Positions 5,839 to 63,655 of a DNA stretch of 64,000 nucleotides are shown piece by piece. The notes under the pieces were generated by a model. It had not been told where the DNA came from. It was given only the letters and a program-made list of their open reading frames with translations, and made no database searches. This stretch comes from a virus. Lineage: Duplodnaviria; Heunggongvirae; Uroviricota; Caudoviricetes. Position 1 is the first letter of the stretch; every line of letters starts with the position of its first letter. The DNA lies in the IMG/VR virus record IMGVR_UViG_3300031134_000466. One strand, 5' to 3'. Position numbers and translations under genes: made by a program.

Positions 5839-5887
5839 GATGACGTACTTATCGGCTTACACGTATAACCAGCCTATAATAGAGGTT

Positions 5888-10758: not shown

Positions 10759-11367
10759 TTAGTCGTCAGATACTTGCTGCCACGCAACTGCAGCATCATT
10801 CCACTCCAGAGCATTGTCGATGTCACCAACCCATTCTCTTACTGATGGCAGCCGGTCACCATTCAAGAAGTTCCGCTTGATTTTCAAGCGTGGGACATAG
10901 AAGCCACCGACTTTTTCTAAGGAACTATGCAAGTTCTCAGTGGGAAGGAACTTGTCAAGGATAGCTGCAAATTCGGGCACAGCTAACCATAGATTGTTCA
11001 CGGAAAGGAACGGAGCAGTGTCAACATGGATAGCACGGTAGAAGTTTACGTCTGAATCGTACATGTAACCGCTTGCTATCCCACCAAAGATTTGCGGTTC
11101 AAATTTGGGGCGGTAAGTGACTTTTCTTGTTTCACTCAACGGAGCATCAATTTTTATCAAGTCAGGAACATATCTTGATGCAGACTTCTCTGTTTTTAGG
11201 TGAAGCAGGTAACCTGTTTGGTCCCAAAAGATTAGACTGTTAGGTACGCTTTTCATCTGTTTCTTGCTCAATAAGTCAAGTTTCGCAAGTTCAGATTTTA
11301 GACTCAACCGACTGATGTCAGGATCGTTCGATAGCTCTTTTGTGTAAGAGTGTGAGGTAATGTTCAT
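10759..11367 (-). CDS. Hypothetical protein
   Basis: ORF in the same minus-strand operon. Confidence 0.5.
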   Translation of the reverse strand: MNITSHSYTKELSNDPDISRLSLKSELAKLDLLSKKQMKSVPNSLIFWDQTGYLLHLKTEKSASRYVPDLIKIDAPLSETRKVTYRPKFEPQIFGGIASGYMYDSDVNFYRAIHVDTAPFLSVNNLWLAVPEFAAILDKFLPTENLHSSLEKVGGFYVPRLKIKRNFLNGDRLPSVREWVGDIDNALEWNDAAVAWQQVSDD

Positions 11368-11369
11368 GA

Positions 11370-12155
11370 TTAGTTATTCACCGTTTCAAAGTAGTATCTA
11401 TTATCGTCATGTTCAACGAAGTGACGTTCAGAAATGTTCTCATTCCCATCTACATACACTTTCAGCTTCCCGCTTCGAACAGTTCCTTCTGTGATAACGG
11501 AAGACTCTCGTCTGGTGGTGCCGTATTCAGTAGAAGCAACATTGTAGTTAGTGAGAATCCATTTTTCGACATCAGTACTGCTGTTGTCAGTGAACCATCC
11601 ACCAGGTAGGAACACTGATACCACAGCCGCGACCGCAAAAATAGATGTCAGAAGAGCTACATGAGCTCCCAGCACATGACCAACAACCTCTTTCCTCTCA
11701 CCCTTAGAGAAGACAACAAAAACCATAGCTAACAAACCAGCAAAAATGACTATGGCCACAACTCGTGCCACCCAGGTGATGATAGACGTTGAACCATCAA
11801 CCCACTCTAAATATTGTGGGTTGGTATAGATCAGATGACCTTTTACCCGAGGTCCGAACAAACCAAGAGAAATAGAGGTGATGTAGAACACAACCCCCAG
11901 GATGGCTAACCAGATCAGTGCTTTTGATTTGGATTTAGAATAAGCAGTTCCAATGTCATTGGCAGTGTCTTTGAAAAATGCTTTACTGTCACCAATCATA
12001 TTTTCTGGACTCAGAGGATCAGTTGAAGTGTTGGAAACAGTTTTAGGCTCAGGCTTTTTCTCTTCAAAATCATTTTTGGAGAAGCCGGTAATAAGATCAT
12101 CAGACATAGTATGTGATCCTATCATGAGTGCATTAGACGCATGAATAAAAGTCAA
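11370..12155 (-). CDS. Membrane protein (4 TM)
   Basis: Hydrophobic helices; first gene of the minus-strand operon. Confidence 0.5.
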   Translation of the reverse strand: MTFIHASNALMIGSHTMSDDLITGFSKNDFEEKKPEPKTVSNTSTDPLSPENMIGDSKAFFKDTANDIGTAYSKSKSKALIWLAILGVVFYITSISLGLFGPRVKGHLIYTNPQYLEWVDGSTSIITWVARVVAIVIFAGLLAMVFVVFSKGERKEVVGHVLGAHVALLTSIFAVAAVVSVFLPGGWFTDNSSTDVEKWILTNYNVASTEYGTTRRESSVITEGTVRSGKLKVYVDGNENISERHFVEHDDNRYYFETVNN

Positions 12156-13387: not shown

Positions 13388-13615
13388 TCCTTGTGTTAAC
13401 AGACCAGAAACGTATCCCATTAGCCGCAGACGCCCATCTGCTGCCCTAATACCCTTCATTCACTCAAGTGGACGGCTTACACTACCCAACCTCTTAGACG
13501 CCGTTTTAGTAAGAAACTGCTTTATAGGGTTACCGAGTTGCATTCTTCGGACCTTCCTGCTAAGGTAAGGAACATACAGTCCTTATTCGTTCCACCAGGA
13601 AGAAACAAAGCTTTT

Positions 13616-14050
13616 ATGTTTGATGAGATTGGCTCGGCGCCTCAGACCCGGTACAAGCCCCGTGCGGGCGTTGTGCAGTTCCCTGAGAAGACTGCTCTTT
13701 CCAACCGTCAGCGTTCCTACCTGGATATTGCTGTTCGCCTCGCTGAGTCCTCGGATGCAAGCTTCAAGCACGGAGCAGTTATTGTTCGTGGCGGCAGCGT
13801 TCTTGCTGTCGGAGTGAACAAGTGGAAGAATCGTGACCTTCCTCCGACTCCCCCTGATGTGTACAACCCTGACATCACTGTCCACGCTGAGATTGATGCT
13901 CTTTCCCGAGTGAAGGACGCTCGCGGAACCACTGTCTACATTGCCCGAGTCACCCGTAGCGGCGACGAGCGTTTCTCTCGCCCCTGCAACCGTTGCGAGA
14001 AGGCTCTCATCGAGGCTGGAGTCAAGCGGGTCGTCTACACGGTAGGCTAA
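13616..14050 (+). CDS. dCMP/cytidine deaminase family protein
   Basis: HAEIDAL and PCNRCEKAL zinc motifs; start chosen at the Met with an upstream AGGAAGAAA SD (the ORF is open from 13538). Confidence 0.75.
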   Translation: MFDEIGSAPQTRYKPRAGVVQFPEKTALSNRQRSYLDIAVRLAESSDASFKHGAVIVRGGSVLAVGVNKWKNRDLPPTPPDVYNPDITVHAEIDALSRVKDARGTTVYIARVTRSGDERFSRPCNRCEKALIEAGVKRVVYTVG

Positions 14051-18429: not shown

Positions 18430-21147
18430 ATGGCCACCCTCATCGGCGTATCAGGAAAAATTGCGTCAGGTAAAGATTACTTGACTGACAAGCTTGTAAA
18501 CGAACTGAAACGTCTTGGTTTTACCATCGACTACACAGCCTTCGCTGCACCCCTGAAGCAGGAACTCAACGAAATCATCTCTCTGATTCGAGCTTTCCCT
18601 GAACAGGATGAACTGACTCTTTCTTTCTCCATCGCTCGTAATCTGGACATCAACTACGATGATGCTCTTCTGATTGCTACTAATCTGAGAACAGAAGTGC
18701 TTGCAGATGAAACTCTCAACGGTTACTCACGAACAGTCAAAATTCGTGAATCTCTTCAGTATCTTGGTACAGAGATTCGCAGGAAGCAGCGTCCTGAATA
18801 CTGGACTGACTTGTTCTTGAACTTCGTCAACAATTCAGAAACAGATTTCATTTTCGTTTCAGATGCACGTTTTCCTAATGAAATGGACACGGTTGTCGAC
18901 AATCAAGGTGTTGCTCTACGTCTTGACATTCCAGAAGAAGTTCTTGCAGAGCGTCGAAACAAGCGTGACGGCATCAAATACACTGATGAGCAGTTGAATC
19001 ATATCTCAGAAACTGCACTGGATGATTACACCAAATTTGACATGATGATTGGTGTGCAGTTCAACGAACGTGAAATCGTAGAGAATATCCTGAAAAAAGT
19101 TGAACGACTTCAGGAACTTCCTGCAAAAGCTTCTCGCGTCCTGAAAGCCAAAATCGCAGAGCATACACCTTCAGTGTCAGATAAGAAAGATGTTTACCCA
19201 GAGGTGAATTTACCTGAAGGCCAGTACAAAGTGTTGTCTTTGTTTGCAGGTGCAGGTGGATTAGATTTAGGTTTTGAGTTAGCTGGATTAGAAGCAGTTC
19301 ACGGTAAAGAAAAAGTGGACGCTGCTTACAAAGACAAAAAAGCATTTGACGAGCTCCGCAAAGAGAACCTCATTCACACGGTCTACGTAAATGACAACTT
19401 CAAAGATGCAATAGCTTCCTACCGTCAGAACTTTCCTGAAACGTTTATTGACGAACGAGATATCAAAAAAATCAGCAGCTTCCCTGATGCAGACCTTCTG
19501 TTAGGTGGATTCCCTTGCTTCCCTAAAGGAACAGGTGTAGCTACAGAGACAGGTTACAAAAACATTGAAGATGTCGAGAAAGGTGATTTTGTTCTCACTC
19601 ATGAAGGTCGTTACCGTGAAGTAACAGACACCATGACACGCAATGTGAACAAATCAGCCACTCTACATGCTTACGGTTCTCTTCCTTTGGTCTCAACGGT
19701 GAATCATCCTTACTGGGTGAAAGAAACTGTCGATTCTGAACCTAAATGGGTTCATGCTGAGAACATTCAGCCAGGTTGGTTTGTGTCTCATCCAATCAGC
19801 ACATTCAGTACAGATGAAGTAACCGAAAAAGAAGCCAAGTTTGCTTACTTAGCCGGCGTCTTCGCTCAGTGTGGTACAAAAACTTTGAACGACGAGCACA
19901 AGCCAAGCTATCTCACTCCTTACAATGATGAGGAGTTCCTGGCTTTGCTGGCTGAAATTGATGCTGTCTGTTCAAAAGAAGGCAAAAACGTCATCGTCCA
20001 CAGTGAACAGCTGAACAAGATGATGAAATTGTTCGGAACTACCAAATGGAACAAAGTCATTCCTGAAGAGGTCCACCAGAAACCACGAGCTTGGCAGAAA
20101 GCTTTCCTTGACGGCTTCCTGTTCCACAACTCTGACCAGGAAGTGCACAGCAAGAACTTGGCTGTTGGCGTGGCTCGAATTATTCGTAGTTTGAACCCTA
20201 CACAGGATGTTATCGTGTCCTCACCCAAATACAGTTCCTGGATTGTAACTGCAACTGACACTACCGTAGCTCATCATGATGACAACTATGTATGGGTTCC
20301 TGTGGAGCGTTTGCAAGTAAGAAACGAAATGGGAGTACTTCCTGTTTACGATATTACTGTAGCCGAAGACGAATCATTCGTAGCAGATGGATTTGTAGTT
20401 CACAACTGCCCTGGCTTCTCAGCAGCAGGTCTTCGCATGTTAGATGACCCTCGCAACTTCCTGTACCTGCATTTCGTACGAGCTGTTGTTGACGCTCAAC
20501 CAAAGATTTTCGTAGCAGAAAACGTAAAAGGTCTACTCACTCATGGTCAAGGTGAAGCTTTCAACCAGATAGTCGAAGACTTTGCAGCAGCAGGTTACAC
20601 CATCTACTACAAGCTGATGAAAGCAATTCAGCATGGTGTACCTCAGATGAGAGAGCGATTGATTATTGTTGGTGTGCGAAACGACATTGATTTTGAATAC
20701 CAGCATCCTGCTGCCACTCATGGTGAAGGTCTACTTCCATACAAAACTCAAAGAGACGCTTTCTACGATTTGAGGGACCTGAACGATGAACACTACGAAG
20801 GAGACTTCTCTTCTCGCTACCGTTCCAGAAGGTTCAAACTGGACTGGGATGTACCGTCAAAGACCATTTTGGCAACAGGGCGGCACCTGCCTTTGCACCC
20901 TGACGGAGTGCCTCAGGAGAAGCTGGAGCAGGACTTGTGGAGTTTAGACGCTGCAGACCGTAGATTCACTGTAAGAGAAGCTGCACGAATCCAGACATTC
21001 CCTGACTGGTATGATTTCGTGACAACCTCTCGCGGAACAACCAACACAGTCCTGGAGAAACAGTACCGTCAGATAGGTAACGCTGTTCCTGTCGAACTGG
21101 GACGAGTTGTTGCTGAACCTATTGTTCAGTTCCTGAAAAGTCTGTAA
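18430..21147 (+). CDS. dNMP-kinase-like P-loop domain fused to a C5-cytosine DNA methyltransferase interrupted by an intein
   Basis: GKIASGKD P-loop; MTase motif I FAGAGG, motif IV GGFP|C...N|CPGFSAAG split by the intein, motif VI ENV, motif VIII QHGVPQMRER, motif X GNAVP. Confidence 0.85.
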   Translation: MATLIGVSGKIASGKDYLTDKLVNELKRLGFTIDYTAFAAPLKQELNEIISLIRAFPEQDELTLSFSIARNLDINYDDALLIATNLRTEVLADETLNGYSRTVKIRESLQYLGTEIRRKQRPEYWTDLFLNFVNNSETDFIFVSDARFPNEMDTVVDNQGVALRLDIPEEVLAERRNKRDGIKYTDEQLNHISETALDDYTKFDMMIGVQFNEREIVENILKKVERLQELPAKASRVLKAKIAEHTPSVSDKKDVYPEVNLPEGQYKVLSLFAGAGGLDLGFELAGLEAVHGKEKVDAAYKDKKAFDELRKENLIHTVYVNDNFKDAIASYRQNFPETFIDERDIKKISSFPDADLLLGGFPCFPKGTGVATETGYKNIEDVEKGDFVLTHEGRYREVTDTMTRNVNKSATLHAYGSLPLVSTVNHPYWVKETVDSEPKWVHAENIQPGWFVSHPISTFSTDEVTEKEAKFAYLAGVFAQCGTKTLNDEHKPSYLTPYNDEEFLALLAEIDAVCSKEGKNVIVHSEQLNKMMKLFGTTKWNKVIPEEVHQKPRAWQKAFLDGFLFHNSDQEVHSKNLAVGVARIIRSLNPTQDVIVSSPKYSSWIVTATDTTVAHHDDNYVWVPVERLQVRNEMGVLPVYDITVAEDESFVADGFVVHNCPGFSAAGLRMLDDPRNFLYLHFVRAVVDAQPKIFVAENVKGLLTHGQGEAFNQIVEDFAAAGYTIYYKLMKAIQHGVPQMRERLIIVGVRNDIDFEYQHPAATHGEGLLPYKTQRDAFYDLRDLNDEHYEGDFSSRYRSRRFKLDWDVPSKTILATGRHLPLHPDGVPQEKLEQDLWSLDAADRRFTVREAARIQTFPDWYDFVTTSRGTTNTVLEKQYRQIGNAVPVELGRVVAEPIVQFLKSL
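19516..20406 (+). mobile_element. Intein (297 aa, Cys1 ... His-Asn, +1 Cys) inserted at the catalytic Cys of MTase motif IV
   Basis: N-terminal splicing block CFPKGTGVATETG...GDFVLTHEG; C-terminal VVHN followed by extein Cys; removal restores GGFPCPGFSAAG; degenerate LAGLIDADG-like blocks (YLAGVF, FLDGFLF). Confidence 0.8.
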
Positions 21148-23380: not shown

Positions 23381-23433
23381 TATGGTGTGCAGCAGATAAG
23401 ATTTTTCTTGCTATCTGTTAGGAATACAAAACT

Positions 23434-24246
23434 ATGTGCAAACGCAAACCATACCCTCGTTGCAGCTACCATGCTCGCATCAAACTTGAAGCTGCAGAAA
23501 AGTCTGGTGATCTTGAACGCATCAAGCTTGCAAGAAGGAACTATTTCACTTCATTAGCTGGTATTGCTGACCTCAAAGCTCAGGGTAAAGATGCATTAGC
23601 TGCAAAATATGAGACTCGTAGAGCAAATCTCATTGCTCAAGCTGAACGTGAGACTAACCTCCGCAAGACACCCCTGGTTTTGGCGTTGGATGTAGACAAC
23701 ACCAGTGGTGACTTCACAGAATCCATTCGTAACCATGTCATGAAGACACAAGGACTTACTCCTGAACAGGCTGAAACACTTCTTCCTAGCCCTCCAACTC
23801 ACTACTCTTTCGTAGACTCAGGCTGGTTCACTGACGTTAACTCATTCCTGGATGCTTTCCATTCAGCGGAAGAGAATGGTGTTTACTCCAAGATGAAAGC
23901 TTTTGACGGAGTAAGCAAGACTCTTCGCACTTTGGTCAGTAATCGTGACGTTGAAGTTCGTGTTGTGACGGCCCGTGGTAACAGATGGAATGAAGAGACC
24001 CGTCAGTGGTTGCGTCGTCATCGTATTCCTTTCACTTCCATCACTCACACTGAGGACAAAGAGAAAGTCCCAGGTATCGATGTGTACATTGATGACTCTG
24101 ACAAGCAGATTAACACTCTGCAGAAGAACGGTAAGACAGTTATTGCGTTCGAGAATGCATACAACGCAACTGTTCCTTCTAAGTATCGTGTAAAGAAGTG
24201 GAAAGAAGTGCCGGCAGTTCTGAAACTCATCGCACAAGCCAAATAA
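23434..24246 (+). CDS. Effector-family protein: Cys/His N-terminal module fused to a HAD-superfamily phosphatase (5'-nucleotidase-like)
   Basis: N-terminus MCKRKPYPRCSYHA shared with the ARTs at 30500 and 51758; HAD motif I ALDVDNT, motif IV IDDSDKQ. Confidence 0.7.
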   Translation: MCKRKPYPRCSYHARIKLEAAEKSGDLERIKLARRNYFTSLAGIADLKAQGKDALAAKYETRRANLIAQAERETNLRKTPLVLALDVDNTSGDFTESIRNHVMKTQGLTPEQAETLLPSPPTHYSFVDSGWFTDVNSFLDAFHSAEENGVYSKMKAFDGVSKTLRTLVSNRDVEVRVVTARGNRWNEETRQWLRRHRIPFTSITHTEDKEKVPGIDVYIDDSDKQINTLQKNGKTVIAFENAYNATVPSKYRVKKWKEVPAVLKLIAQAK

Positions 24247-24391
24247 CAAACCATCAATATGGCGGTCCAGGATGCTAATTGTCCTGGGCCGCCCTTGTTT
24301 TCTCAATTAGGTGTTATGGGAACCTGTGAAAAGCTTGTTAATTACCGATACTTTTTTCAGCTACCTAACCCCCTTAGAGAGAAGAATCTGT

Positions 24392-26083
24392 ATGTCTGCT
24401 GGCAGCACGCACCCGACTATTCAAAACTACACAAAAATACGAGCAGCTTTTAGCTCCTCACAAGCCGCTATCGACTTAGCTTCCATCATGGTGGGTGTCA
24501 TCGTAATCGGACTTATTGGTGGAGTAATCTCTGCCACAGTATTCGCTATCATTCCTTGGGCACAGGACAAAGCAGCGAAAGCATCTCTCTCCTCAGTACA
24601 CACAGCAGAATCAGCATATGCTGGGTTCAGTGTTGGTGATGACGGAGAGAAGAAACAAACTTTTGGTAACTACGACGACTTGAAAGCTGAACATGGAGGT
24701 TTGCTTCAAGAATCTGAACGTCTAATAGTTTCCACCGGAACAAACAACAAAGACTGCTATGTTGCTGTCATTACCTCAGAGACAGGAAACCGTTTCTGGA
24801 TTGACAACAAGATCAGTGCACCTCGCATGTACCAAGAAGGTGACCAGTCAGAGTGTCTGAACCTTGAAGACATGTTCGGTGATGACAACGGTGGTATTGG
24901 ATACAACTCCTCCCTTGATGGTACTTACTTCGAAGGGCAAGGTTTTGCAGCTGTTGTTCACATTCGTAACAGTGCAATCAACTATGGTGTTGAACCAGAC
25001 CCAACTTGTGAGCCTACTGACCCAGCCACACAGGTAACACAGGTAAAAGCTTACTTAGACAGTGAAGAAATTGAAATTGCTGGTAGCTGGGAATACATGC
25101 AATCATCAGACGGAATTCAGACAGCAGTAGGCATCCAAACCACTAACGGATACATTGGTGCTACCACAGAGGAAGCTCAAACTTTCGCTGAAAGAGGACA
25201 AGTAATTTTCTTACCAGCTGGTTGTGCTGATTCAATCACCATCAACGTATCAGGAACATCCACTCCTCCAGGTGGTGACGACGGCGGTGGTGACCAACCT
25301 GTTGAACTATGCAGCAAGTACAATAACATGTTCACTGACGCCCAAACAACCAGTGAAACCACTGGAACTACTTTCTATGTTGACCCAAGCTGCAACACCA
25401 GCATGACTGCAATGTTCACATCCTTTGAGTCGATGTTCCAAACAATGGGACAGCCAACACTTACCGCTCGTACTGACGGTTGCTGGTCAGAACAGGGAAC
25501 TTATAAGAAAGTTGCCTGTGACCCAACAGGACAAGCTTACTACTACAGCCCAGGAAGCATGGAACAGTTCTGGACTTCAGCTAACGGAACAACAGTTGAA
25601 TTGTACCTCAACGGTTCAAGTACCCCATTCTTCTCCCAGGCATCAAACACTCCAAGTGAGTTCTACTACGAAGTTCCTCGTGAAGATAGGACAGATTCCT
25701 ACACTCAGAGCTCATACAACGCTGACGCTCCAACTGTCGGAATTGATGTCACAAGTAGCTACAGAATGACCAACTTCTACCGTGCAGCTAAACCAGCTGC
25801 AGGAACAACTTCAAACTCTTGCTTGGATGAACTTCAAGCGGGTAAGCTTCCAACCACTTACCAAGGCGAGTATGGTGTAGCTAACTGCCAAGGTGAAGAT
25901 GACTTCCGTATCTATGACTGGGACATCTCAGGTAACTTCGGTAATGCCGATGAAGCAACTTACGAAAACATCAAAACAGTCAGTGAACAAGGCGGTATGG
26001 TCAAGTTCACAACAACAGAAGGTAAAACTTCAACCATCCAGCTGAACCCAGGAGCTTTGAACCCAGAACCACAAGCTTCATAA
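24392..26083 (+). CDS. Membrane-anchored surface protein, paralogue C, with a divergent C-terminal domain
   Basis: AIDLASIMVGVIVIGLIGGVISATVFAIIPWAQDKAAK matches the N-terminus of 1636 and 2847; GAGAGAAG SD before the Met at 24392. Confidence 0.7.
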   Translation: MSAGSTHPTIQNYTKIRAAFSSSQAAIDLASIMVGVIVIGLIGGVISATVFAIIPWAQDKAAKASLSSVHTAESAYAGFSVGDDGEKKQTFGNYDDLKAEHGGLLQESERLIVSTGTNNKDCYVAVITSETGNRFWIDNKISAPRMYQEGDQSECLNLEDMFGDDNGGIGYNSSLDGTYFEGQGFAAVVHIRNSAINYGVEPDPTCEPTDPATQVTQVKAYLDSEEIEIAGSWEYMQSSDGIQTAVGIQTTNGYIGATTEEAQTFAERGQVIFLPAGCADSITINVSGTSTPPGGDDGGGDQPVELCSKYNNMFTDAQTTSETTGTTFYVDPSCNTSMTAMFTSFESMFQTMGQPTLTARTDGCWSEQGTYKKVACDPTGQAYYYSPGSMEQFWTSANGTTVELYLNGSSTPFFSQASNTPSEFYYEVPREDRTDSYTQSSYNADAPTVGIDVTSSYRMTNFYRAAKPAAGTTSNSCLDELQAGKLPTTYQGEYGVANCQGEDDFRIYDWDISGNFGNADEATYENIKTVSEQGGMVKFTTTEGKTSTIQLNPGALNPEPQAS

Positions 26084-26097
26084 ATAACCAAACTGTT

Positions 26098-26134
26098 GAA
26101 GCCTCCCACCTGTAGTAATAAGGTGGGAGGCTTC
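26098..26134 (+). terminator. Hairpin terminator
   Basis: gaagcctcccacct/aggtgggaggcttc. Confidence 0.6.
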
Positions 26135-26180
26135 AACCATGCTAAGATGTATGAAACCCCATACCTAACGAAAGAAATCT

Positions 26181-26297
26181 ATGGACGAGTATTCAGCTTT
26201 TGAGAAACGAAACAAAGTAATTCGAGTCGTCGCAATTGTCACAGTAATAGCTGTTGCCGGCTCAGGAATCGCAGCAGCCTTCTTCGGAGCATTCTAA
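26181..26297 (+). CDS. 38-aa small membrane peptide (single TM)
   Basis: MDEYSAFEKRNKVIRVVAIVTVIAVAGSGIAAAFFGAF; below the ORF-track cutoff. Confidence 0.3.
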   Translation: MDEYSAFEKRNKVIRVVAIVTVIAVAGSGIAAAFFGAF

Positions 26298-26337
26298 AAA
26301 TACCTGATGAGAGCGTCTTTTTGATTCAAAATTAGAG

Positions 26338-26365
26338 TTGCAAACCTCCGAAAACGTGCTATAAT
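26338..26365 (+). promoter_or_regulatory. Sigma70/SigA-type promoter TTGCAA-N16-TATAAT with the predicted TSS at the ATG of the PARP gene (leaderless)
   Basis: Hexamers read directly; the -10 ends 6 nt before the ATG at 26372. Confidence 0.45.
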
Positions 26366-26371
26366 AAGAGC

Positions 26372-27676
26372 ATGGGAAAAATCATTGAAGAGACAATGCT
26401 TGTCATGGTTGACACAAAGAACAACAACAACAAGTTCTACCATGTCACATTGGATGATGCTAACGTCGTCACCAAGCGCTGGGGACGTGTAGGAGCTGAA
26501 GGAGCGAGTTCCGTCGAGACAACAGGCAAGATTGGTTACGAGCGAGCCATCAAGTCCAAAGAGAAAAAGGGCTACAAGGTCTCACCTATTGTTAGCACAG
26601 GTGTCACAGTCAAGAGTTCTGTCAACCACCTTGACGAAGTAGCTAAGAAGTTTCTGTCCAAGGACAGCGGAGACAGCCTTATCAGCAACCTCATTGACCG
26701 ACTCATCGCATCAAACCAGCACCAGATTATGGAGCAGTCCGGTGGTATGATTAAGATTACCGACGACGGAACCGTAAAGACCGCTCTCGGTGTTGTTGAC
26801 CTTTGCTCCATCAACTCTGCCCGAGACCTCATTGGTGAGATGCAGAAGAAGAAAACAGGGCAGACCAAGCTCCTGGAAGATTACCTCACCCTCATTCCTC
26901 AGAACATTGGGTACCGTCGTGGTTGGGAAGAGGACTTCCTGAAGACGGAAAACTTTGCCAAGCAGATGGACTTCTTGAAGCAGCTTGAGGATTCTGTGCA
27001 GTGGCGAAACACCACCGCACAGGTCACCACAGATGACGAAGACAAGTTCGACATCGATGCTCACAAAGACCTGTTCCGCATGAACCTTGCGAAGATTTCC
27101 GACAGCGGAAAAGACTTCGACCGTATCAACAAGATGTTTAAAGAAACACGCAACAACATGCACACATCACGTAACCTCAAACTTGTGAACGTGTATGCAG
27201 TGGAAGATGTCAAGGGCAAGGAAGCTTACGAAGCTGCTCAGAAGAAGTATGGAAACGTACGTGAACTCTGGCACGGAACAAAAGCCTCCAATGTTCTCTC
27301 CATTCTCACAAAGGGATTGTTCGTGCCTAACGCAGGTAGCGGTATCCCTGTGACAGGAAGAATGTTCGGTGATGGTGTCTACTTCAGTGACCAGAGCACC
27401 AAAAGCTTGAACTACGCCAACGGTTACTGGGATGGTTCACGCACCAGCCAGAACTGTTTCATGCTTCTGAACGATGTTGTCATGGGTCATGAGTACCGCC
27501 CTCAGCGTTGGGACTACAGCTCTCTCCGTCAGGCACACAAGGGCGTTGGAACTTCAGGTAAGCCTTACCAGTCCATCAGCGTTCGTGGTGGAACCTGTAA
27601 CGTTCGAAACAACGAAATGATTATTTGGAACACTGACCAGGTGGCTGTACGTTACCTCTGCGAATTTGGTAGCTAA
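26372..27676 (+). CDS. Poly(ADP-ribose) polymerase: WGR domain, helical domain and PARP catalytic domain
   Basis: WGR motif KRWGRVG; catalytic H-G-T, GDGVYFSD, KSLNYA and NNEMIIW aligning to the PARP1 HGS / Y / catalytic-Glu region. Confidence 0.85.
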   Translation: MGKIIEETMLVMVDTKNNNNKFYHVTLDDANVVTKRWGRVGAEGASSVETTGKIGYERAIKSKEKKGYKVSPIVSTGVTVKSSVNHLDEVAKKFLSKDSGDSLISNLIDRLIASNQHQIMEQSGGMIKITDDGTVKTALGVVDLCSINSARDLIGEMQKKKTGQTKLLEDYLTLIPQNIGYRRGWEEDFLKTENFAKQMDFLKQLEDSVQWRNTTAQVTTDDEDKFDIDAHKDLFRMNLAKISDSGKDFDRINKMFKETRNNMHTSRNLKLVNVYAVEDVKGKEAYEAAQKKYGNVRELWHGTKASNVLSILTKGLFVPNAGSGIPVTGRMFGDGVYFSDQSTKSLNYANGYWDGSRTSQNCFMLLNDVVMGHEYRPQRWDYSSLRQAHKGVGTSGKPYQSISVRGGTCNVRNNEMIIWNTDQVAVRYLCEFGS

Positions 27677-27745
27677 TTGACAGCTTTTAGCCTATCTGCT
27701 GAAAATCACCAGAAAAGAAATATCGTATCAGTGATGCTGGTAAAG

Positions 27746-28399
27746 CTAATTGTGTTTTTTTGCAGGTACAGGTCTACTCATTGAATTTGCACTTCCTAAT
27801 ATGAATATTAACGCTGTGCTGGCTAAATTCAATATATTACTAAACGTTAAAACTAAATTTAGCCTTGATTGTTTTGTTTCACGGATTTCAGGATTGTAAA
27901 CATATTCTGGTACTTCTGCCAAGCATTTTTCTTTAGGAGTTAGGTTGTTGTACCAGGCAGCTGTTTGGGGCATGGAACCGGCACTATTTGAAACATTCGC
28001 ACATCGTTCGGCGGGAGTCATATTCTCTATTCGGGCGTCATTCAAAGAAGTTCCAATTACAATACTTTGCAGAAGGAAAGATATAACACTCAAAGTCAAG
28101 ATAAGACCAGGTAATTTTGATAAAGATTTTGTGTCATTGCCTCTTCTAAACCATAGGCTAATTGTAGGGGCTAAAATAGCTATAGTGAATATCAACGTGA
28201 GTACGTAAAATTGTTTCGTACTTATAAACTCAGCATATCGCATAAGTAACAAAACGATATTTACAGAAACATAAAATAACATCCAATACCAAAATTCACT
28301 TTTACTGGCTGTTCCTTGGGGCTTGAAACTACGTTCAAATCCATGGCGTATTGCTCTGAAAAAATTAACAGATTCTGCAACAGGGGGTATATAAGTCAT
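27746..28399 (-). CDS. DUF805-family inner-membrane protein
   Basis: ASKSEFWYWMLF motif and 4 TM helices. Confidence 0.6.
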   Translation of the reverse strand: MTYIPPVAESVNFFRAIRHGFERSFKPQGTASKSEFWYWMLFYVSVNIVLLLMRYAEFISTKQFYVLTLIFTIAILAPTISLWFRRGNDTKSLSKLPGLILTLSVISFLLQSIVIGTSLNDARIENMTPAERCANVSNSAGSMPQTAAWYNNLTPKEKCLAEVPEYVYNPEIRETKQSRLNLVLTFSNILNLASTALIFILGSANSMSRPVPAKKHN

Positions 28400-28538
28400 A
28401 CATCTATATTCGGTTCAAAAGAACAAAATAACACTTAGATAACAGGCTATTGATCGGATGTAGAGAGGATGACATGTTTCTATAGTGCGTGTATCTCAGA
28501 TAATCTAAGGTTGTAATTCGCCTTGTTAGACATAAACT

Positions 28539-29579
28539 ATGACCACTGCTACTAAATGTGCCAAACCAAAAGGGGTATATTGCCGTTTGCACAACCCTGA
28601 ACCTCGTGGGTATGCTTCTGCATCAGAAGCGTTAAATAAAGCAGAGCAGGACTTCAACAAAGCCAACCCGATCAAATCTTCTTCTCCTGGTGTTTCTTTT
28701 CATAAAAACGGTGAGACTCGCACATTGCACAAAAGTGTTCCAGAGAACATTGCTGACCATATTGCTTTGAATCAAGAACAACTGTCTCACTTGTCAGACA
28801 TGCAGAAGAAAGCTTTGAACGGTTACACCGGCTTTGCTGCAGGTGTTTGCAATAGTGTGTTGTTAGCAAAAGAATTCGCTTATGAGTATTACGAAGATGC
28901 CCCTCTATGGAAAGAAGCCCCAGGAGGAGCGTGTGACTTTGTTTCTCGTGAAGATTTAGTTGACTACATGGAAACAATGGATGGTATCCTTGCTTCCCGC
29001 CAGGAACAATCCCGAGTTCTATACCGTGGTATTCCTATTTACTCAGAACTGCATGACGAGATTGGTAATGGCATAGGTAAAAAGCTGCCTTTCGCTGATG
29101 CTACTGGCTTAGCAGAGGGTTTGAGTGAATATTACAAGCCTGGTACTGTCATTAAGCATGACCATTACTTGTCCACAACAGCATCAGCGTATTATGCAGC
29201 TGACCGTACAGACAATTCCATCGGGACAAAAAAGAGCTATTACGATAGCAATGATGTACCAGTCGGTATTGTCTTTGAGCTGAAAACCAATGCTGGTTTG
29301 GATGTTACAGCTGCAGCTCGTCATCATTCTTATGAACGTGAAGTGGTGTTACCTCGTGAAACTTACTTCAAAGTTGTCAACGTGGACGTGAATCCACAAG
29401 CTTATGACACTGTTTCAGGATTCGATACGCTCAACCATCCTGAGGAGCGAGAGCAGAAAACTTTCACTCGCTTAGCTGCTGTTGTTCAGATGGTCGAAGT
29501 AGACAAAAACGGCAAAGAAATAACAGGTACTGCACCTCATAATCCAGAGAGAAAAATCAGCGACATCATTCCTGGATGA
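28539..29579 (+). CDS. Mono-ADP-ribosyltransferase (R-S-E class, C3/VIP2-like)
   Basis: YRG Arg, STT, and ExE loop YEREVVLPRETYFKVV; weaker version of the shared Cys/His N-terminus. Confidence 0.75.
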   Translation: MTTATKCAKPKGVYCRLHNPEPRGYASASEALNKAEQDFNKANPIKSSSPGVSFHKNGETRTLHKSVPENIADHIALNQEQLSHLSDMQKKALNGYTGFAAGVCNSVLLAKEFAYEYYEDAPLWKEAPGGACDFVSREDLVDYMETMDGILASRQEQSRVLYRGIPIYSELHDEIGNGIGKKLPFADATGLAEGLSEYYKPGTVIKHDHYLSTTASAYYAADRTDNSIGTKKSYYDSNDVPVGIVFELKTNAGLDVTAAARHHSYEREVVLPRETYFKVVNVDVNPQAYDTVSGFDTLNHPEEREQKTFTRLAAVVQMVEVDKNGKEITGTAPHNPERKISDIIPG

Positions 29580-29612
29580 CAGCACCTTTGTTGGATTACT
29601 CCAAATATAGTT

Positions 29613-29658
29613 AAAAAGCTGTGGCGCCACCTCTACAAAGGTGGCGCCACAGCTTTTT
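29613..29658. terminator. Bidirectional hairpin terminator
   Basis: aaaaagctgtggcgccacc/ggtggcgccacagcttttt. Confidence 0.65.
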
Positions 29659-29884
29659 AACTTCTCATTTTCCTCTTATTAGCCATCTCCAATATTCTGT
29701 TGTATTCAACAACCTGCAGTAGAGCAGCACGTAGAGTATCTTCTAAGAACGCACCGTCTTTGTTTCGGTAGTCGGTACTGACTGAGATGTGATTGCCGTT
29801 CACAGTGAAGCGGATGAAGTTGGCTTCATGAGGCTGTGAGGCCGGGGATGGTTTTCCGAGGTGGAGTGATACGTTTTTTGACAT
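29657..29884 (-). CDS. Hypothetical small protein
   Basis: AAAGGA SD before the internal Met; the ORF is open to 29953. Confidence 0.4.
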   Translation of the reverse strand: MSKNVSLHLGKPSPASQPHEANFIRFTVNGNHISVSTDYRNKDGAFLEDTLRAALLQVVEYNRILEMANKRKMRS

Positions 29885-30499: not shown

Positions 30500-31465
30500 A
30501 TGTGCTACCCCAAACCTGGTCCTCGCTGTTCAGCTCATGCTGCAGTTAAACTGGCGACTGTAAAACTCGCTTCTACCAGCGGTAGTCAAGATTTTGCCGA
30601 GTACTTAGCTCATCAGGAGCGTCTTGAAGAAGCTCAGCTGGAGTATGACATCACGCCAGCAGGTTTGAAAGATTTACAGGATTTAGTGGGTCAACGAAAT
30701 GACCCTGACGCTGAGCTCCGTTATTCCAAAGCTAAAGCCCTGAGAGCAAAGAAGTTGGCTTTGTTGCATGAAGACCAGAAACAAGAGCAAGGTCATACTC
30801 TTGCAAGGGTTCAAGGGGTAAATGAAGATTTTTGTTCTGATGAAATTGTTCGTTCTAACAAAGATGCTGGAATCACATCCGCAGCTTTAGTAGCTGAAGC
30901 TGAACCGTGGTTTAATCAGTTGAACGATGATGAACTTTCTCAAATGCACTGGATGACCGACTATGGTTCAATGGAAGCTAATACGCACATCGCAGGAACC
31001 AATGACCATAAACGTTTTGGTGGTCTATTCTCTGCAGAGAACTTGGAATCTCGTATGGTTCAAGTTGACTCGGCTTTGAGTAAGTTTGAGTCACATCATG
31101 ATGAAGTTGTCTACAGGGGCTTTCGTGAAGGCTCTCTTCCCTCTGCTATGGCAAACAACTACCGGGTATCAGATGATGTGAAGCAAGCTGCAGTTCTGAA
31201 ATCTTTCACCGTAGGTGAAGTCTACAAGTCTGATTTCTACATGCCAACTTCTGTACAGCCTGAAGAGGCTGCTCGTTTTGCTGATTTCGGTTGCGTCATG
31301 GAAATCAAAACCCGCAAAGCTGCTCCTGTATCTGCCATTTCTGAAGTTCCCCGTGAGTCAGAAAAACTGATTGGTCGTAACAGTGAATTCAAAGTCGTGG
31401 CAATCAAAGAGAACATCATGTACGGCATTAAGAGAATGACTGTTGTTCAGTTAGAGCAACTCTAA
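30500..31465 (+). CDS. Mono-ADP-ribosyltransferase (R-S-E class) with the Cys/His N-terminal module
   Basis: MCYPKPGPRCSAHA N-terminus; VYRGF, MPTSV, ESEKLIGRNSEFKVV. Confidence 0.8.
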   Translation: MCYPKPGPRCSAHAAVKLATVKLASTSGSQDFAEYLAHQERLEEAQLEYDITPAGLKDLQDLVGQRNDPDAELRYSKAKALRAKKLALLHEDQKQEQGHTLARVQGVNEDFCSDEIVRSNKDAGITSAALVAEAEPWFNQLNDDELSQMHWMTDYGSMEANTHIAGTNDHKRFGGLFSAENLESRMVQVDSALSKFESHHDEVVYRGFREGSLPSAMANNYRVSDDVKQAAVLKSFTVGEVYKSDFYMPTSVQPEEAARFADFGCVMEIKTRKAAPVSAISEVPRESEKLIGRNSEFKVVAIKENIMYGIKRMTVVQLEQL

Positions 31466-35979: not shown

Positions 35980-36441
35980 TTAATACTCTGTACGCAGCTG
36001 ATACTCGCCCCAAGTCGTGAAAGGCTGAACAGAATTGTCCAGGATAATTCGTTCAGCAACATCACCAGATGCAAGCTTCTCATAAAATGCTGCATCGTCA
36101 AAACCAGCATTCGCCGCATCATAACGGTCAGCAGAAAACACAATACGGTCAACACGAGACCATAAAGCAGCACCTAAACACATAGGGCAAGGTTCACAGG
36201 ATGAATAAAGAACACATCCTTCCAGGTTGAACACTTTAGCCTTGGCACAAGCAGCCCTAATAGCATTCACTTCCGCATGAGCGGTAGGGTCAATCGTGGT
36301 GGTGACAGAGTTTCCCGCAGCAACCGTGCTGCCGTTAGGGAAAAGGATTACAGCCCCAAAAGGTCCACCATTGCCGCTTTCCACGTTCTTTACAGCTGTA
36401 TCAATAGCAAGCTTAAGATAGTCAGCGTCGTTCATATTCAA
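35980..36441 (-). CDS. CDA-fold guanine deaminase / tRNA adenosine deaminase-like protein (GuaD/TadA family)
   Basis: GGPFGAVI, HAEVNAIR and CEPCPMCLGA motifs, closely resembling Bacillus GuaD. Confidence 0.75.
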   Translation of the reverse strand: MNMNDADYLKLAIDTAVKNVESGNGGPFGAVILFPNGSTVAAGNSVTTTIDPTAHAEVNAIRAACAKAKVFNLEGCVLYSSCEPCPMCLGAALWSRVDRIVFSADRYDAANAGFDDAAFYEKLASGDVAERIILDNSVQPFTTWGEYQLRTEY

Positions 36442-39327: not shown

Positions 39328-40449
39328 TCAGTCAGCAGTTTTTCCGTTCAAGTTCCAGAATGGCTTCTCAAACTCAGGCTGAATCATTTTCCAGATGATG
39401 TCAGAGATTTTCTTCTCAGACCTGGTATCAAAATGACCTCCGCTGTGACGAGAGAATAACAAACCAGTAATGCGTTTGTCTTCTTTCTGTACAGCTGCAG
39501 CGTAGTCCTTCTGAGTGTATCCTTCAGGAAGTTCAGAAAGAATACGGTTGTAAGTTTCCTCAACTGTTGCACGCAATTCAGCATGCTCTGCAAGTAGTCG
39601 GTCACGAGTTGTTTCGACATACTCAACGAACTCATCAGGGAGACCAACAATCCATGAAGTGAAGTCACCGTCAGCTACAAGCAGCTCCCAGATGCGACGC
39701 GAAGAAGCACCTGTGATGACACGGTGAAGCTGAACGTAGTCATCCTGTTTCACTTTCACTCGAACATCACTATCCAGGAAGTGAACAACAACGCCTTCTT
39801 TGTTCTCACGACCAGGAGCGGCCAAAGCTTCAGTAAGGCTGTTGTATTCAAACTGCTCAACCTTCAACCAAGTCCATTCATCAACCTGTGATGCTGGTAC
39901 AGAGCGACCTGTTGCTGTGTTCACTCGGGCAATCAAGATGAGGTCATCCAAATCACCGTAGTTAACAACGATACGGTTTGTAGGGTAGATGATTTCCCAG
40001 ATGTAAGTTTCACCAGCAAGTGGCTCCCATTTTCCGTCGTACAGCTCCTGGTAACGTGCTGTGGCATGCAGAGCCTGCTCAGAGCTGAATGAACCTCGTG
40101 TGGAGATGTTCAGTCGACCAGTTTCAGGGTTTACATATGAAACACCCATAGAACCATCTGCTTTGTCTGTGACAACGATAGGTCCAGTCAGTGCATCCTG
40201 AGGAACATCTGGTTCGCCGTGGTTAAAGAACTTACCAAGAGGGCGGGAGACAATCTCCTGGGTGGAACCGTCAACGATAAGTCCTCGTGAAGCTAATGTT
40301 GCAGCGTTCCAGGCTCGGTCAAACTGGCATACCTGTGAGTAGTCAAAGATAGCCAGGTCAAGCGTAGGGTGAACCTGACGATTGATGTGCTTGTTCTGGA
40401 ATTCAGCTGCCCAAAGTTCAGCAGGAGCGATATCGTAAATGTGTACCAT
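39328..40449 (-). CDS. ATP-dependent RNA ligase, paralogue 1
   Basis: Nucleotidyltransferase motif I VTDKADGSMG (KxDG); shared block LASRGLIVDG...RPLGKFFNHGEPDVP with the ligase at 54122. Confidence 0.75.
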   Translation of the reverse strand: MVHIYDIAPAELWAAEFQNKHINRQVHPTLDLAIFDYSQVCQFDRAWNAATLASRGLIVDGSTQEIVSRPLGKFFNHGEPDVPQDALTGPIVVTDKADGSMGVSYVNPETGRLNISTRGSFSSEQALHATARYQELYDGKWEPLAGETYIWEIIYPTNRIVVNYGDLDDLILIARVNTATGRSVPASQVDEWTWLKVEQFEYNSLTEALAAPGRENKEGVVVHFLDSDVRVKVKQDDYVQLHRVITGASSRRIWELLVADGDFTSWIVGLPDEFVEYVETTRDRLLAEHAELRATVEETYNRILSELPEGYTQKDYAAAVQKEDKRITGLLFSRHSGGHFDTRSEKKISDIIWKMIQPEFEKPFWNLNGKTAD

Positions 40450-42792: not shown

Positions 42793-44685
<1,893 letters not shown>

Positions 44686-50666: not shown

Positions 50667-50800
50667 GATTCTAATGTTCCTTAATCGTTGTCAGCTTTAT
50701 GAGCGGTCAAAGAATTCTATCATCAACGGCTAAAGCACATAGTATTTGACAGCTGGCTGGGTTTCATGGTAAGTTGGAGTATCTTAAGTTAGGAAACAAA

Positions 50801-51757: not shown

Positions 51758-52729
51758 TTAAATTTCTCGCAGCTGCACAATTGTCAGTTCAGTTGCTTCA
51801 CCTTTTTTATTGACCCTTTTGACTTTCACATCATTAGCAACAACTTCGAATTTTGCACCACGAGGAATGATGAACTCATACTCTCTTGGACCTTGCGATG
51901 AAATAGCTGTGATTGGGGCTCCACTTTTTGTAAGAATCTGTAAAGAAACATTGATGTTGTCTTTGGAAGGTAAATCTTGAGGATTCAAACTTGTCGATAA
52001 GAAGAATTTAGGTTCGTAAGTGCTACCAACAGGGAAATGTTTGTCGAGGTTTTGAGCGTCATCACTTGAATGATATCCTTTTTCATCATAAAGATGATGA
52101 CGGCGGTAAACCATCACGCCTTCTTCTGCTGGTTCGTGTTTAGCAAAAGCATCATCCAGGATAGTTACAGCTGCATCCAACGTTTCAGGTGCAACATTTT
52201 TTGCGTACGGATTTGTTGAAGCTGAAAGATGGCCGTTGATGTCAGCATAGCCATCTTCTGAATACCAGCGAAGAGTAGCTATTTCAGTATCATCCAGTTT
52301 GGCACTCCAGTTTTGGGAATCTGCCATGCTGTTCAACAGGTCAGCATGTTTGTAATGCATCTCTTCAAGAGTGTCACCAGTTTCGAAAAACGTCGGAGAA
52401 GTGTAAGCAGCTTTTTGTGCTTTTTTGTGGGTGATGACTTTACGATCCGCAACAGCAGCTAATCTTCTGGCTCGTTCTTGAGAAAGCGCTTCGTATTCTT
52501 CTGCATGCCATTCCTGCGTTGGATTCTTTTTGATCTGTCTTTCCAAAGACTTTAGATAAGCTGGTGTTAGTTTGTACTCTGCTTCAGCTTTTCTTCTTAC
52601 CGCTATTAGCTTCTCAAGCTCTGGGTCTTTGCGGTTGTCCATGAAAGCACTGAGAACCGCTTGATGAGCTTTAGCGTAGGTGGCTGCAGCATGAGCTGAA
52701 CAACGGGGACCAGGTTTTGGGTAACACAT
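51758..52729 (-). CDS. Mono-ADP-ribosyltransferase (R-S-E class) with the Cys/His N-terminal module
   Basis: MCYPKPGPRCSAHA N-terminus; VYRR, LSTSL, PREYEFIIPRGAKFEVV. Confidence 0.8.
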   Translation of the reverse strand: MCYPKPGPRCSAHAAATYAKAHQAVLSAFMDNRKDPELEKLIAVRRKAEAEYKLTPAYLKSLERQIKKNPTQEWHAEEYEALSQERARRLAAVADRKVITHKKAQKAAYTSPTFFETGDTLEEMHYKHADLLNSMADSQNWSAKLDDTEIATLRWYSEDGYADINGHLSASTNPYAKNVAPETLDAAVTILDDAFAKHEPAEEGVMVYRRHHLYDEKGYHSSDDAQNLDKHFPVGSTYEPKFFLSTSLNPQDLPSKDNINVSLQILTKSGAPITAISSQGPREYEFIIPRGAKFEVVANDVKVKRVNKKGEATELTIVQLREI

Positions 52730-61548: not shown

Positions 61549-61590
61549 TACCTGCCAAACACACAGGTTATCTCATGGTAGAATAGTTAA

Positions 61591-62238: not shown

Positions 62239-62312
62239 TCACAAAAACGTGCTTTTTCGTCAATATGACGATATACTGTAATAAGAATGGTCTAAGGAAG
62301 GAAACCCGTATC

Positions 62313-63632: not shown

Positions 63633-63655
63633 CAATTTGACTTACTTTCAACTGA

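Follow-up and report, generated by a model that had tools for sequence, protein, structure and literature searches.

The 64,000-nucleotide stretch of the IMG/VR virus record IMGVR_UViG_3300031134_000466 analyzed here (hereinafter the window) codes for a poly(ADP-ribose) polymerase (PARP), whose sequence securely identifies it as a PARP1/2/3-type protein with a WGR domain, a helical domain and an ADP-ribosyltransferase (ART) domain bearing an intact active site. We consider it likely that this is a working member of the compact bacterial PARPs, i.e., those consisting of the WGR/helical/ART core with no accessory domains, that it resides on a very large phage-like replicon, and that it is activated by DNA breaks and expressed from a leaderless mRNA.

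By homology, the WGR domain would bind a DNA break, nick or end, and this binding would loosen the autoinhibitory helical domain, upon which the H-Y-E active site would draw on NAD+ to modify both the protein itself and neighboring targets with ADP-ribose. Sequence and comparison predict that a sigma-70-type promoter, TTGCAA-N16-TGcTATAAT, starts the mRNA at the A of the ATG with no leader. Extended -10 elements placed in the same way, 6 nt before an ATG, probably drive three neighboring mono-ADP-ribosyltransferases (mARTs) and several other genes, and NadE-type genes of the phage might help sustain the NAD+ pool. The DNA dependence, chain length, targets, expression timing and biological role of the PARP are what we infer.

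Domain architecture of the PARP

The first possible start codon after the in-frame stop at 26333 is the ATG at 26372 (Table 1). The Pfam PARP domain (PF00644) is detected at aa 247-432 with an E-value of 2.4e-29 (102.7 bits against a cut-off of 26.7), covering model positions 2-197 of 199, and the Pfam WGR domain (PF05406) at aa 8-69 with an E-value of 1.1e-10 (42 bits against a cut-off of 22). In a phmmer search of PDB sequences, aa 4-405 match the WGR/helical/catalytic chain of human PARP1 (1e-20), while a profile of 118 homologues aligns end-to-end with human PARP1 (8e-40) and PARP2 (1.7e-38). The AlphaFold2 model of the protein (pLDDT 87.6, pTM 0.80) shows a β-rich WGR domain, an all-helical region at about aa 85-235 with helices at 87-95, 102-122, 144-159, 164-174, 192-219 and 228-234, and an ART fold. 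Its top Foldseek matches in the PDB are DNA-bound PARP1 (8g0h, 4dqy) and PARP2 (6x0l), with TM-scores of 0.64-0.66, and these span whole WGR-HD-ART chains. The alignments with PARP1 place aa 90-235 on its helical domain. By fold and alignment, a helical regulatory domain is thus predicted between the two domains seen by Pfam, a feature that goes beyond the account given in an earlier, sequence-only reading of this locus.

That reading had recognized a WGR motif, KRWGRVG, near the N-terminus. It lies at aa 35-41, with W37-G38-R39 encoded by TGG GGA CGT at 26480-26488, in a domain that Pfam places above its cut-off. The N-terminal 83 residues alone retrieve the WGR domains of PARP3 (2eoc) and PARP2, with which they have the blocks NNNNKF/YY and RWGRVG in common. 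Across the 118 sequences, no variation is seen at N18, K21, F22, Y23, G38 or R39, and conservation of W37 reaches at least 90%. Comparisons with five relatives give dN/dS ratios of 0.1-0.2, approximate values because dS (0.8 to above 2) is near saturation, and indicate that the gene is under purifying selection. NCBIfam has no model for this protein.

The active site

The catalytic motifs are WHGT (aa 300-303), GVYFSD (aa 335-340), STKSLNY (aa 342-348) and NNEMIIW (aa 413-419), and their residues align with those of PARP1 as listed in Table 1. E415 corresponds to the catalytic glutamate E988, because the profile sets the NNE of the family on Y986-N987-E988 of PARP1. H301, G302, Y337, K344, Y348 and E415 are invariant in the 118 homologues. 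On sequence evidence, the H-Y-E triad and the NAD+ pocket are complete, so the PARP1-like His, Tyr and catalytic-Glu region claimed by the sequence-only reading stands, and careful alignment finds the NAD-binding residues intact. The PARP had no ADPrib_exo_Tox match in the Pfam search: it is an enzyme of the H-Y-E (diphtheria-toxin-like) type and not of the R-S-ExE type.

A predicted leaderless promoter with conserved spacing

The TTGCAA-N16-TATAAT that had been noted directly upstream of the ATG is present, and a TG one base before the hexamer, which the sequence-only reading had passed over, makes the -10 element an extended one. The gap between TATAAT and the ATG is 6 nt (AAGAGC), and no Shine-Dalgarno (SD) sequence lies upstream of the ATG at 26372. 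Sites that match the consensus at 10 or more of 12 positions and have the TG number three on both strands of the window, as against 0.6 expected from first-order shuffles; given this excess and the canonical distance to the start codon, the PARP promoter-like site is beyond chance.

Comparison with syntenic relatives carries the argument further. The layout TGnTAnAAT-N6-ATG is kept in seven lineages that span 55-100% protein identity with synonymous sites near saturation, and the rest of the upstream DNA in the relatives is unalignable with that of the window. Listed with their PARP identity, extended -10 element and gap before the ATG, the relatives compared are L019 (76%; TGA TACAAT; agatgc), L026 (73%; TGG TAGAAT; agacac), L015 (67%; TGG TACAAT; agagct), L017 (65%; TGA TACAAT; aacacc), L028 (56%; TGT TAGAAT; agaagc) and L027 (55%; TGG TAAAAT; agaatc). 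A -35-like TAGACA or TTGAAA lies 17-18 nt upstream of the -10 element in L019, L015, L017, L027 and L028, and no clear -35 hexamer was seen upstream of that of L026. In L028 the gene finder took a downstream Met; the motif precedes an upstream ATG, whose use restores the conserved N-terminus.

The same spacing stands out within the window. Among 68 genes, whose starts were set by the longest-open-reading-frame (ORF) rule only, nine have a TGnTA with the hexamer exactly 6 nt from the start, while each of the other offsets from 0 to 30 has zero to two. The bare pattern TGnTAnnnn-N6-[AG]TG is as frequent as composition predicts (19 copies, 17.8 expected); of the 19 copies, ten coincide with the first start of an ORF of 100 aa or longer, and in every one of these the start is ATG (Table 1). 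An SD core, even a 4-mer, precedes only 20 of the 68 genes. Leaderless expression looks like a general feature of this genome as far as the window's sequence goes, and the predicted leaderless promoter of the PARP, which the sequence-only reading had proposed, is well supported by both the spacing in seven lineages and the offset-6 peak.

The mART genes have a -10 flavor of their own, TGTTAGnnn, with no recognizable -35, and their counterparts in the relatives keep TGTTAGnnn-N6-ATG. Since the -10 flavors differ and only the PARP has a -35, the PARP is not necessarily co-regulated with the mARTs, and the two may belong to different temporal classes. For the same reason, we did not adopt a single co-regulated ADP-ribosylation operon or regulon, with the -35 and TGnTAnAAT of the PARP set against the TGTTAGnnn without a -35 of the mARTs.

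Other sites of this kind were seen in the window. The second-best sigma-70-like site, TTGACT-N17-TGgTAGAAT (63636-63673), ends 5 nt before the ATG at 63671, a position which suggests that ORF 63656-63973 may truly start at 63671 and also be leaderless. The NT5C-like nucleotidase gene is preceded by TGTTAGGAA, 9 nt and the ATG (window 23416-23436), likewise found upstream of NT5C in L015, L017 and L027; this is an element of the mART TGTTAG type at a fixed, longer offset that would give a leader of about 3 nt. Of two overlapping ORFs at 61573-62238, the one on the + strand (61591) is probably the genuine gene.

Table 1. Positions in the window of the PARP gene, its expression signals and key residues, and of other genes discussed in the text
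Feature	Position	Strand	Basis or detail
-35-like hexamer TTGCAA	26338..26343	+	Sequence
Extended -10 element TGcTATAAT	26357..26365	+	TG at 26357-26358, TATAAT at 26360-26365
ATG start and predicted transcription start (A = +1)	26372..26374	+	6 nt past the -10 hexamer
PARP coding sequence	26372..27676	+	434 aa, stop codon included; Pfam, phmmer, family profile
WGR domain, about aa 1-75	26372..26596	+	Pfam WGR; NNNNKFY block at aa 17-23
Helical (regulatory, HD-like) domain, about aa 85-235	26624..27076	+	PARP1 alignment, AlphaFold model, Foldseek
ADP-ribosyltransferase (PARP catalytic) domain, about aa 237-434	27080..27673	+	Pfam PARP, invariant columns
H301-G302-T303 (PARP1 H862-G863-S864)	H301 CAC, 27272-27274	+	Alignment
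Y337-F338 (PARP1 Y896-F897)	Y337 TAC, 27380-27382	+	Alignment
K344-S345 (PARP1 K903-S904)		+	Alignment
Y348 (PARP1 Y907)		+	Alignment
E415 (PARP1 E988)	GAA, 27614-27616	+	Family-profile alignment
Mono-ADP-ribosyltransferase 1	28539..29579	+	R163, S212-T-T, E266-R-E268; TGT TAGACA-N6-ATG
Mono-ADP-ribosyltransferase 2	30500..31465	+	YRG, ESE; TGT TAGAGA-N6-ATG
Mono-ADP-ribosyltransferase 3, Alt-like phrog_802	51758..52729	-	TGT TAGAAA-N6-ATG
NadE-like gene	56409-57374	+	NAD+ supply
Weak NadD-like adenylyltransferase domain	58101-59624	+	NAD+ supply
NadE	62265-63158	+	Above NCBIfam equivalog cut-off
Leaderless-layout gene, PARP	26372	+	TGnTAnnnn-N6-ATG
Leaderless-layout genes, three mARTs	28539, 30500, 52729	+, +, -	TGnTAnnnn-N6-ATG
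Leaderless-layout gene, T4 Rnl1-like ligase	54122	+	TGnTAnnnn-N6-ATG
Leaderless-layout gene, calcineurin-like phosphoesterase	5107	-	TGnTAnnnn-N6-ATG
Leaderless-layout gene, DUF4126 protein	59642	+	TGnTAnnnn-N6-ATG
Leaderless-layout ORFs with no assigned function	30050, 61591, 32866	+, +, -	TGnTAnnnn-N6-ATG

Polymer or single ADP-ribose

Several observations weigh against the reading of a working, break-activated polymerase of a phage. The position of Y986 of PARP1, an acceptor-site tyrosine tied to chain elongation and branching by PARP1 mutants, is an Asn here (N413, family-invariant, with VRNNE aligned on LLYNE), and PARP1 has about 14 more residues in the loop preceding the catalytic Glu. 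The H-Y-E triad is moreover necessary yet not sufficient for polymer synthesis: PARP3 has it and nevertheless acts as a mono-transferase, and PARP4, to which we do not extend the triad comparison, is named a mono-ADP-ribosyltransferase by its PDB depositors. Pfam PARP_reg (PF02877), the regulatory-domain model, gives no match on the PARP sequence, and the Pfam scan of about 70 window ORFs detected no eraser of the PARG, macrodomain or ARH type. Promoter-like matches are not enriched overall in the 8-kb neighborhood (7 as against 11 expected), and no capsid, portal or terminase gene lies within the 64 kb. Our literature search found no experimental study, biochemical or transcript, of a phage-encoded PARP.

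As for the regulatory domain, some members of the family do match PF02877, and most bacterial PARPs have been reported to escape PARP_reg yet to have the helical domain (PMC5966428). Because Pfam misses the sequence, autoinhibition by this domain rests on the model and the alignments.

The points on the active site suggest an alternative in which the enzyme is a break-activated mono- or oligo-ADP-ribosyltransferase of the PARP3 kind, or a modifier of DNA-end phosphates, and no true polymerase; its modification could cap the ends of the phage genome or mark those of host DNA, with no poly(ADP-ribose) (PAR) scaffolds being formed. PARP1, PARP2 and PARP3 are able to ADP-ribosylate DNA-end phosphates in vitro, and the best alignment of the WGR domain is with those of PARP3 and PARP2, both of which, along with N413, the shortened loop and the lack of a PARG-type eraser among the ORFs scanned, count for this alternative. 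Against it stand the intact H-Y-E triad and entire NAD+ pocket, and the fact that both compact bacterial PARPs tested so far make antibody-detectable PAR (PMC5966428). The segment from the catalytic Tyr to the Glu has 78 residues here as against 92 in PARP1, and only 69 (Y359 to E428) in the PARP of Clostridioides difficile, CdPARP (PMC5966428); as CdPARP makes PAR with an even shorter segment, the short loop does not exclude polymer synthesis. We hold such a mono- or oligo-transferase or DNA-end modifier possible but rather unlikely. Poly- and mono-ADP-ribosylation cannot be told apart from H-Y-E alone, and by analogy the predicted product of the PARP is probably ADP-ribose chains, short or long.

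ADP-ribosylation and NAD+ genes around the PARP

The three mARTs and the NAD-supply genes that the sequence-only reading had named together with the PARP are borne out by their motifs and by NadE- and NadD-type matches (Table 1). All three mARTs are of the ADPrib_exo_Tox type with full R / S-T-S / ExE motifs. The neighborhood with YqaJ-RNaseT, MazG-like, signal peptidase, Wzy, NT5C, PARP, mART and SPFH genes is syntenic across the relatives. In L029, which is more distantly related, a Macro gene lies 5 kb from the PARP; a tblastn search with this macrodomain protein found no match in the window. PADLOC 2.0 has no defence model matching the PARP or the mARTs at E<=1e-3.

An alternative is a host-directed role, in which the host chromosome, once fragmented by the phage or by host nucleases, activates the PARP, which then modifies nucleoid, replication or repair proteins of the host or burns NAD+; it would serve host takeover alongside the three mARTs and would not be a guard of phage DNA. 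In favor of this are the close presence of three Alt/Mod-like mARTs and the repetition of the NT5C, PARP, mART, SPFH neighborhood in the relatives. Iyer et al. suggested for phage PARPs an action like that of the phage ARTs, with chains being added (PMC7824862), and the strong host-type promoter suggests expression by unmodified host RNA polymerase. The investment of the phage in NAD+ synthesis argues against NAD+ depletion as the goal, however, and the promoter class of the PARP, with its -35, differs from the TGTTAG-type sites of the mARTs. On balance, a takeover role appears conceivable though doubtful, and we continue to favor break-activated ADP-ribosylation of the enzyme and nearby targets. 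A response to host nuclease attack on phage DNA, as suggested in the sequence-only reading, is speculative, and is one of several conceivable roles next to host takeover and the modification of DNA ends.

Further observations concern the same genes. A motif of the form MC(K/Y)xKPxPRCSxHA opens the NT5C-like nucleotidase and two of the mARTs (23434-23480, 30500-30545, 52729-52685 on the - strand), and the N-terminus of mART1 has a looser version of it, CAKPKGVYCRLH; this common N-terminal module, which precedes different enzymes, might serve in targeting or packaging or form a small Cys/His knuckle. A DUF805 membrane-protein gene separates the PARP from mART1 (27746-28399, - strand; within 27677-28538). 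It is missing from L001 and L002, whose PARP is 100% identical to that of the window; in its place they have 100 nt of unrelated spacer (11306-11404) that contain a hairpin of about 21 bp, and the 8-nt loop is inverted between the two, TTTTTAGC as against GCTAAAAA. At 29612-29659, between convergent genes, a perfect palindromic hairpin with a 20-bp stem and A/T runs on its flanks reads as a bidirectional intrinsic terminator.

The start site

The N-terminus MGKI(V/I)EETML is conserved as protein, with synonymous changes at the DNA level; in the model, the first WGR strand consists of residues 4-14, and the PARP1 alignment begins at residue 4. A start at Met9 or Met12 with GAAGAG as the SD sequence was rejected as codons 1-8 are conserved as protein and one relative is without GAAGAG.

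A broader form of this alternative would make the promoter incidental, the gene being transcribed from upstream and translated by SD-independent initiation, or started at Met9 via GAAGAG with a 24-nt leader. GAAGAG does lie 3 nt before the ATG at 26396, the relative P0013 was called by the gene finder from a downstream Met, and, since no more than 20 of 68 genes have a 4-mer SD core, the window must commonly rely on initiation without an SD sequence. An incidental promoter sits poorly with the 6-nt spacing and TG being kept in seven lineages while the gap bases vary, with the sharp offset-6 peak, and with the motif standing before the upstream ATG in L028. A Met9 start, in turn, would discard protein-conserved codons 1-8 and part of the first WGR strand, and L027 (GAC GAA CGC ATG) has no GAAGAG. 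We regard these possibilities as very unlikely and retain the predicted leaderless start at 26372.

Nature of the replicon

Because the window holds no virion gene, our case for a phage origin is drawn from its T4-type polynucleotide kinase-phosphatase (PNKP; phrog_505, 1e-87), Rnl1 (phrog_562, 6e-64), Alt-like ARTs, phage-type ribonucleotide reductase small subunit and DnaB-like helicase; an intein-bearing Dcm and DnaK are also encoded. Jumbo phages typically have such a gene set. Neither tRNA nor rRNA genes were found in the window, and an Rfam search over its whole length gave no matches. The part of the sequence-only reading that called the PARP phage-encoded is thus strengthened by the T4-type PNKP, Rnl1 and other phage-type genes and goes without the backing of a structural gene; judged from the sequence, we find it likely.

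The sizes of related contigs bear on the same question. Members of the window PARP's own 90%-identity cluster are on contigs of 776,559, 782,330 and 788,683 bp, and those of a 67%-identity cluster on contigs of 878,479, 878,612, 880,975, 881,636 and 828,331 bp. The contigs of the P0001 and P0006 cluster members come from independent JGI, ENA and Logan assemblies, and, from the recurrence of these sizes, the replicons appear to be complete at about 0.78 and 0.88 Mb. The largest phage genome that we found in the literature is that of BF3, with 841,704 bp (bioRxiv 10.1101/2025.01.14.633092); if they are phages, the relatives of about 0.88 Mb exceed it.

Such sizes could also point to a megaplasmid, another extrachromosomal element or a cellular island, with the PARP as a cellular stress or defence gene. 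Close relatives' contigs of 0.41-0.88 Mb, the upper end of which lies above that largest phage genome, the lack of structural genes in 64 kb, and the chromosomal Micrococcales genes that are the closest homologues in cultured organisms speak for this. We nonetheless think it quite improbable in view of the T4-type PNKP, Rnl1, Alt-like ART, ribonucleotide reductase small subunit and DnaB-like helicase, the empty tRNA, rRNA and Rfam searches, the lack of a PADLOC model for the PARP, and the occurrence of homologues in bona fide cultured phages. More speculative still is the idea, to which we give little credence, that a leaderless set (PARP, three mARTs, RNA ligase and others) in phage-like replicons of about 0.78-0.88 Mb has the PARP as its first member, driven by a host promoter, that the substrate of the PARP would be the terminal phosphates of phage or host DNA, the modification blocking exonucleases or repair, and that the leaderless design would keep translation going while phage ARTs reprogramme SD-dependent translation; if so, a PARP would here have a use not described before, coupled to its own mode of expression. 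A break-activated PARP on a phage-like replicon remains the reading that we prefer.

Other features of the replicon were noted in passing. Two T4 Rnl1-type RNA ligases and the T4-type PNKP are encoded at 39328-40449 (- strand), 50774-51706 and 54122-55363; these make up a full set for tRNA repair, implying that the host has anticodon nucleases. A single 905-aa ORF (18430-21147) has an N-terminal dNMP-kinase-like region and a C5 cytosine methyltransferase split by a Hint/intein; its counterpart in L015 and L019 is a 553-aa ORF with no recorded Pfam match, while L016-L018, L027 and L028 have there a separate kinase-like ORF of 225-230 aa and lack a methylase gene in this place. Three paralogues at 1636-2751, 2847-4235 and 24311-26083 (371, 462 and 590 aa) have near-identical N-terminal DNA and a hydrophobic anchor (...SSQAAIDLASIMVG...), while their C-terminal parts vary, with DUF285 repeats in the second. 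Accessory genes at 8246-8998 (- strand), 5837-6619, 42826-44685, 13538-14050 and 35980-36441 (- strand) comprise a TerF-like vWA protein, an ABC ATPase, a full-length DnaK/Hsp70 and two dCMP-deaminase-like genes. When the YqaJ-RNaseT fusion protein was searched by tblastn, unrelated phages yielded weak domain matches only, and exact-protein look-ups of NadE (62265) and the DUF285 protein (2847) gave no match.

Habitat and host are touched upon by two further observations. One protein of the P0006 cluster is recorded as a 'hypothetical protein' (616 aa; KAJ1683543.1) from the plant Rhynchospora breviuscula, on a contig of 54 kb; a phage or bacterial contaminant of the plant assembly almost certainly explains the record, which may point to a plant-associated habitat. 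A literature search with the sample and run accessions gave no match. The hints at a Gram-positive or actinobacterial host, namely a sub-cut-off LPXTG-like motif, DUF285, a CHAP gene in a relative and the actinobacterial nearest homologues, are weak and were not used as evidence.

Relatives and significance

The sequence-only reading took PARPs to be rare in bacteria and phages, which overstates the case. A search of 1.84 billion cluster representatives (50% identity clusters) yields 323 matches at E<=1e-30, nearly all of them full-length and 410-450 aa long, and 16 of 50,697 phage records code for homologues. Four of these show 40-41% identity over 98% of the query, two of which (Xoo-sp13 and XacN1) are annotated as poly(ADP-ribose) polymerase; megablast of 26000-28000 against the same phage records found no match. 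An IMG/VR scan gave only relatives of at most 38% identity, and the close relatives came from exact-protein look-up. The nearest homologues in cultured cells are from Micrococcales, with that of Leifsonia sp. Leaf264 at 46% identity.

Compact bacterial PARPs have been catalogued since 2014, when phage PARP genes were also listed from Aeromonas phage Aeh1 and Cellulophaga phage phi4:1 (PMC4245714). A PARP in jumbo phages, that of XacN1, was noted in 2021 (PMC7824862), and a study of gut jumbo phages in 2024 tied phage NAD+ synthesis to a phage 'PARP1' as a DNA-damage sensor (PMC11662467). With both phage PARPs and the link of NAD+ synthesis to PARP in jumbo phages already published (PMC4245714, PMC7824862, PMC11662467), the gene described here is a clear further example of the known bacterial and phage PARPs and no new kind of system. 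The picture of PARP evolution and phage biology is unchanged by it; its value is that of an experimental candidate with a conserved leaderless signal. The window PARP is a clean, compact 434-aa candidate, its catalytic and DNA-sensing residues all intact and under purifying selection, which, lying beside three mARTs and NAD+ synthesis genes, suits a test of break sensing, polymer making and DNA-end modification. The extended -10, 6 nt and ATG make up a compact, testable expression signal that also bears on the annotation of these giant genomes: the orthologue P0013 was apparently called from a downstream Met, and 63656-63973 is possibly a second case.

Comparison with known systems

The closest biochemical models are the PARPs of Herpetosiphon aurantiacus (HaPARP, 47 kDa) and C. 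difficile CD160 (CdPARP, 52 kDa), both of which show DNA-dependent, rucaparib-sensitive auto-PARylation that is reversed by PARG (PMC5966428, PMC8120803). Like them, the window PARP is a compact WGR/helical/ART protein in the class of about 45-52 kDa with the H-Y-E triad and the NI-site residues Gly, Tyr, Ser, Tyr and Glu. Their genes are chromosomal, in bacteria that also have PARG, whereas the present one resides on a giant phage-like replicon and the window showed no eraser gene. The full-length profile and fold matches likewise ally the protein with human PARP2 and PARP3, which comprise the WGR-HD-ART core, i.e., PARP1 minus its zinc fingers and BRCT domain. It differs from these in having about 20% identity, no N-terminal extension, zinc fingers or BRCT domain, and a shorter WGR domain (about 75 aa); unlike for the human PARPs, no HPF1-type partner is expected.

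Annotated PARPs are known from the Xanthomonas phages Xoo-sp13 and XacN1, the Stenotrophomonas phages CM1 and RAS14, Klebsiella phage vB_KpM_FBKp34 (gp111) and the Cellulophaga phages phi4:1 and phi17:2. The window PARP matches these, which are carried by jumbo or large myoviruses, in length and three-domain layout (all three domains are annotated in FBKp34 gp111), but it has no DNA similarity to them and other neighbors, while theirs mostly have an SD-type leader and Gram-negative hosts. It also resembles over its full length, at 42-46% identity, the 'WGR domain-containing protein' of Micrococcales such as Leifsonia sp. Leaf264, Rathayibacter and Agromyces, of which that of Leaf264 belongs to clade 2.6 of the bacterial PARP tree (PMC5966428). 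Unlike the window PARP, these genes are chromosomal, in high-GC genomes, and TGnTAnAAT-N6-ATG was not seen upstream of them.

With regard to expression, leaderless mRNAs are found elsewhere in lambda cI transcribed from P_RM and in many actinobacterial and Deinococcus genes. As in those, the -10 element here would put the transcription start at the A of an AUG, which is required, with no SD sequence. In contrast to them, the present layout is read from the sequence, appears to serve ADP-ribosylation and RNA-repair genes on a giant phage-like genome, and comes in two -10 flavors, TGnTAnAAT with a -35 and TGTTAGnnn without one.

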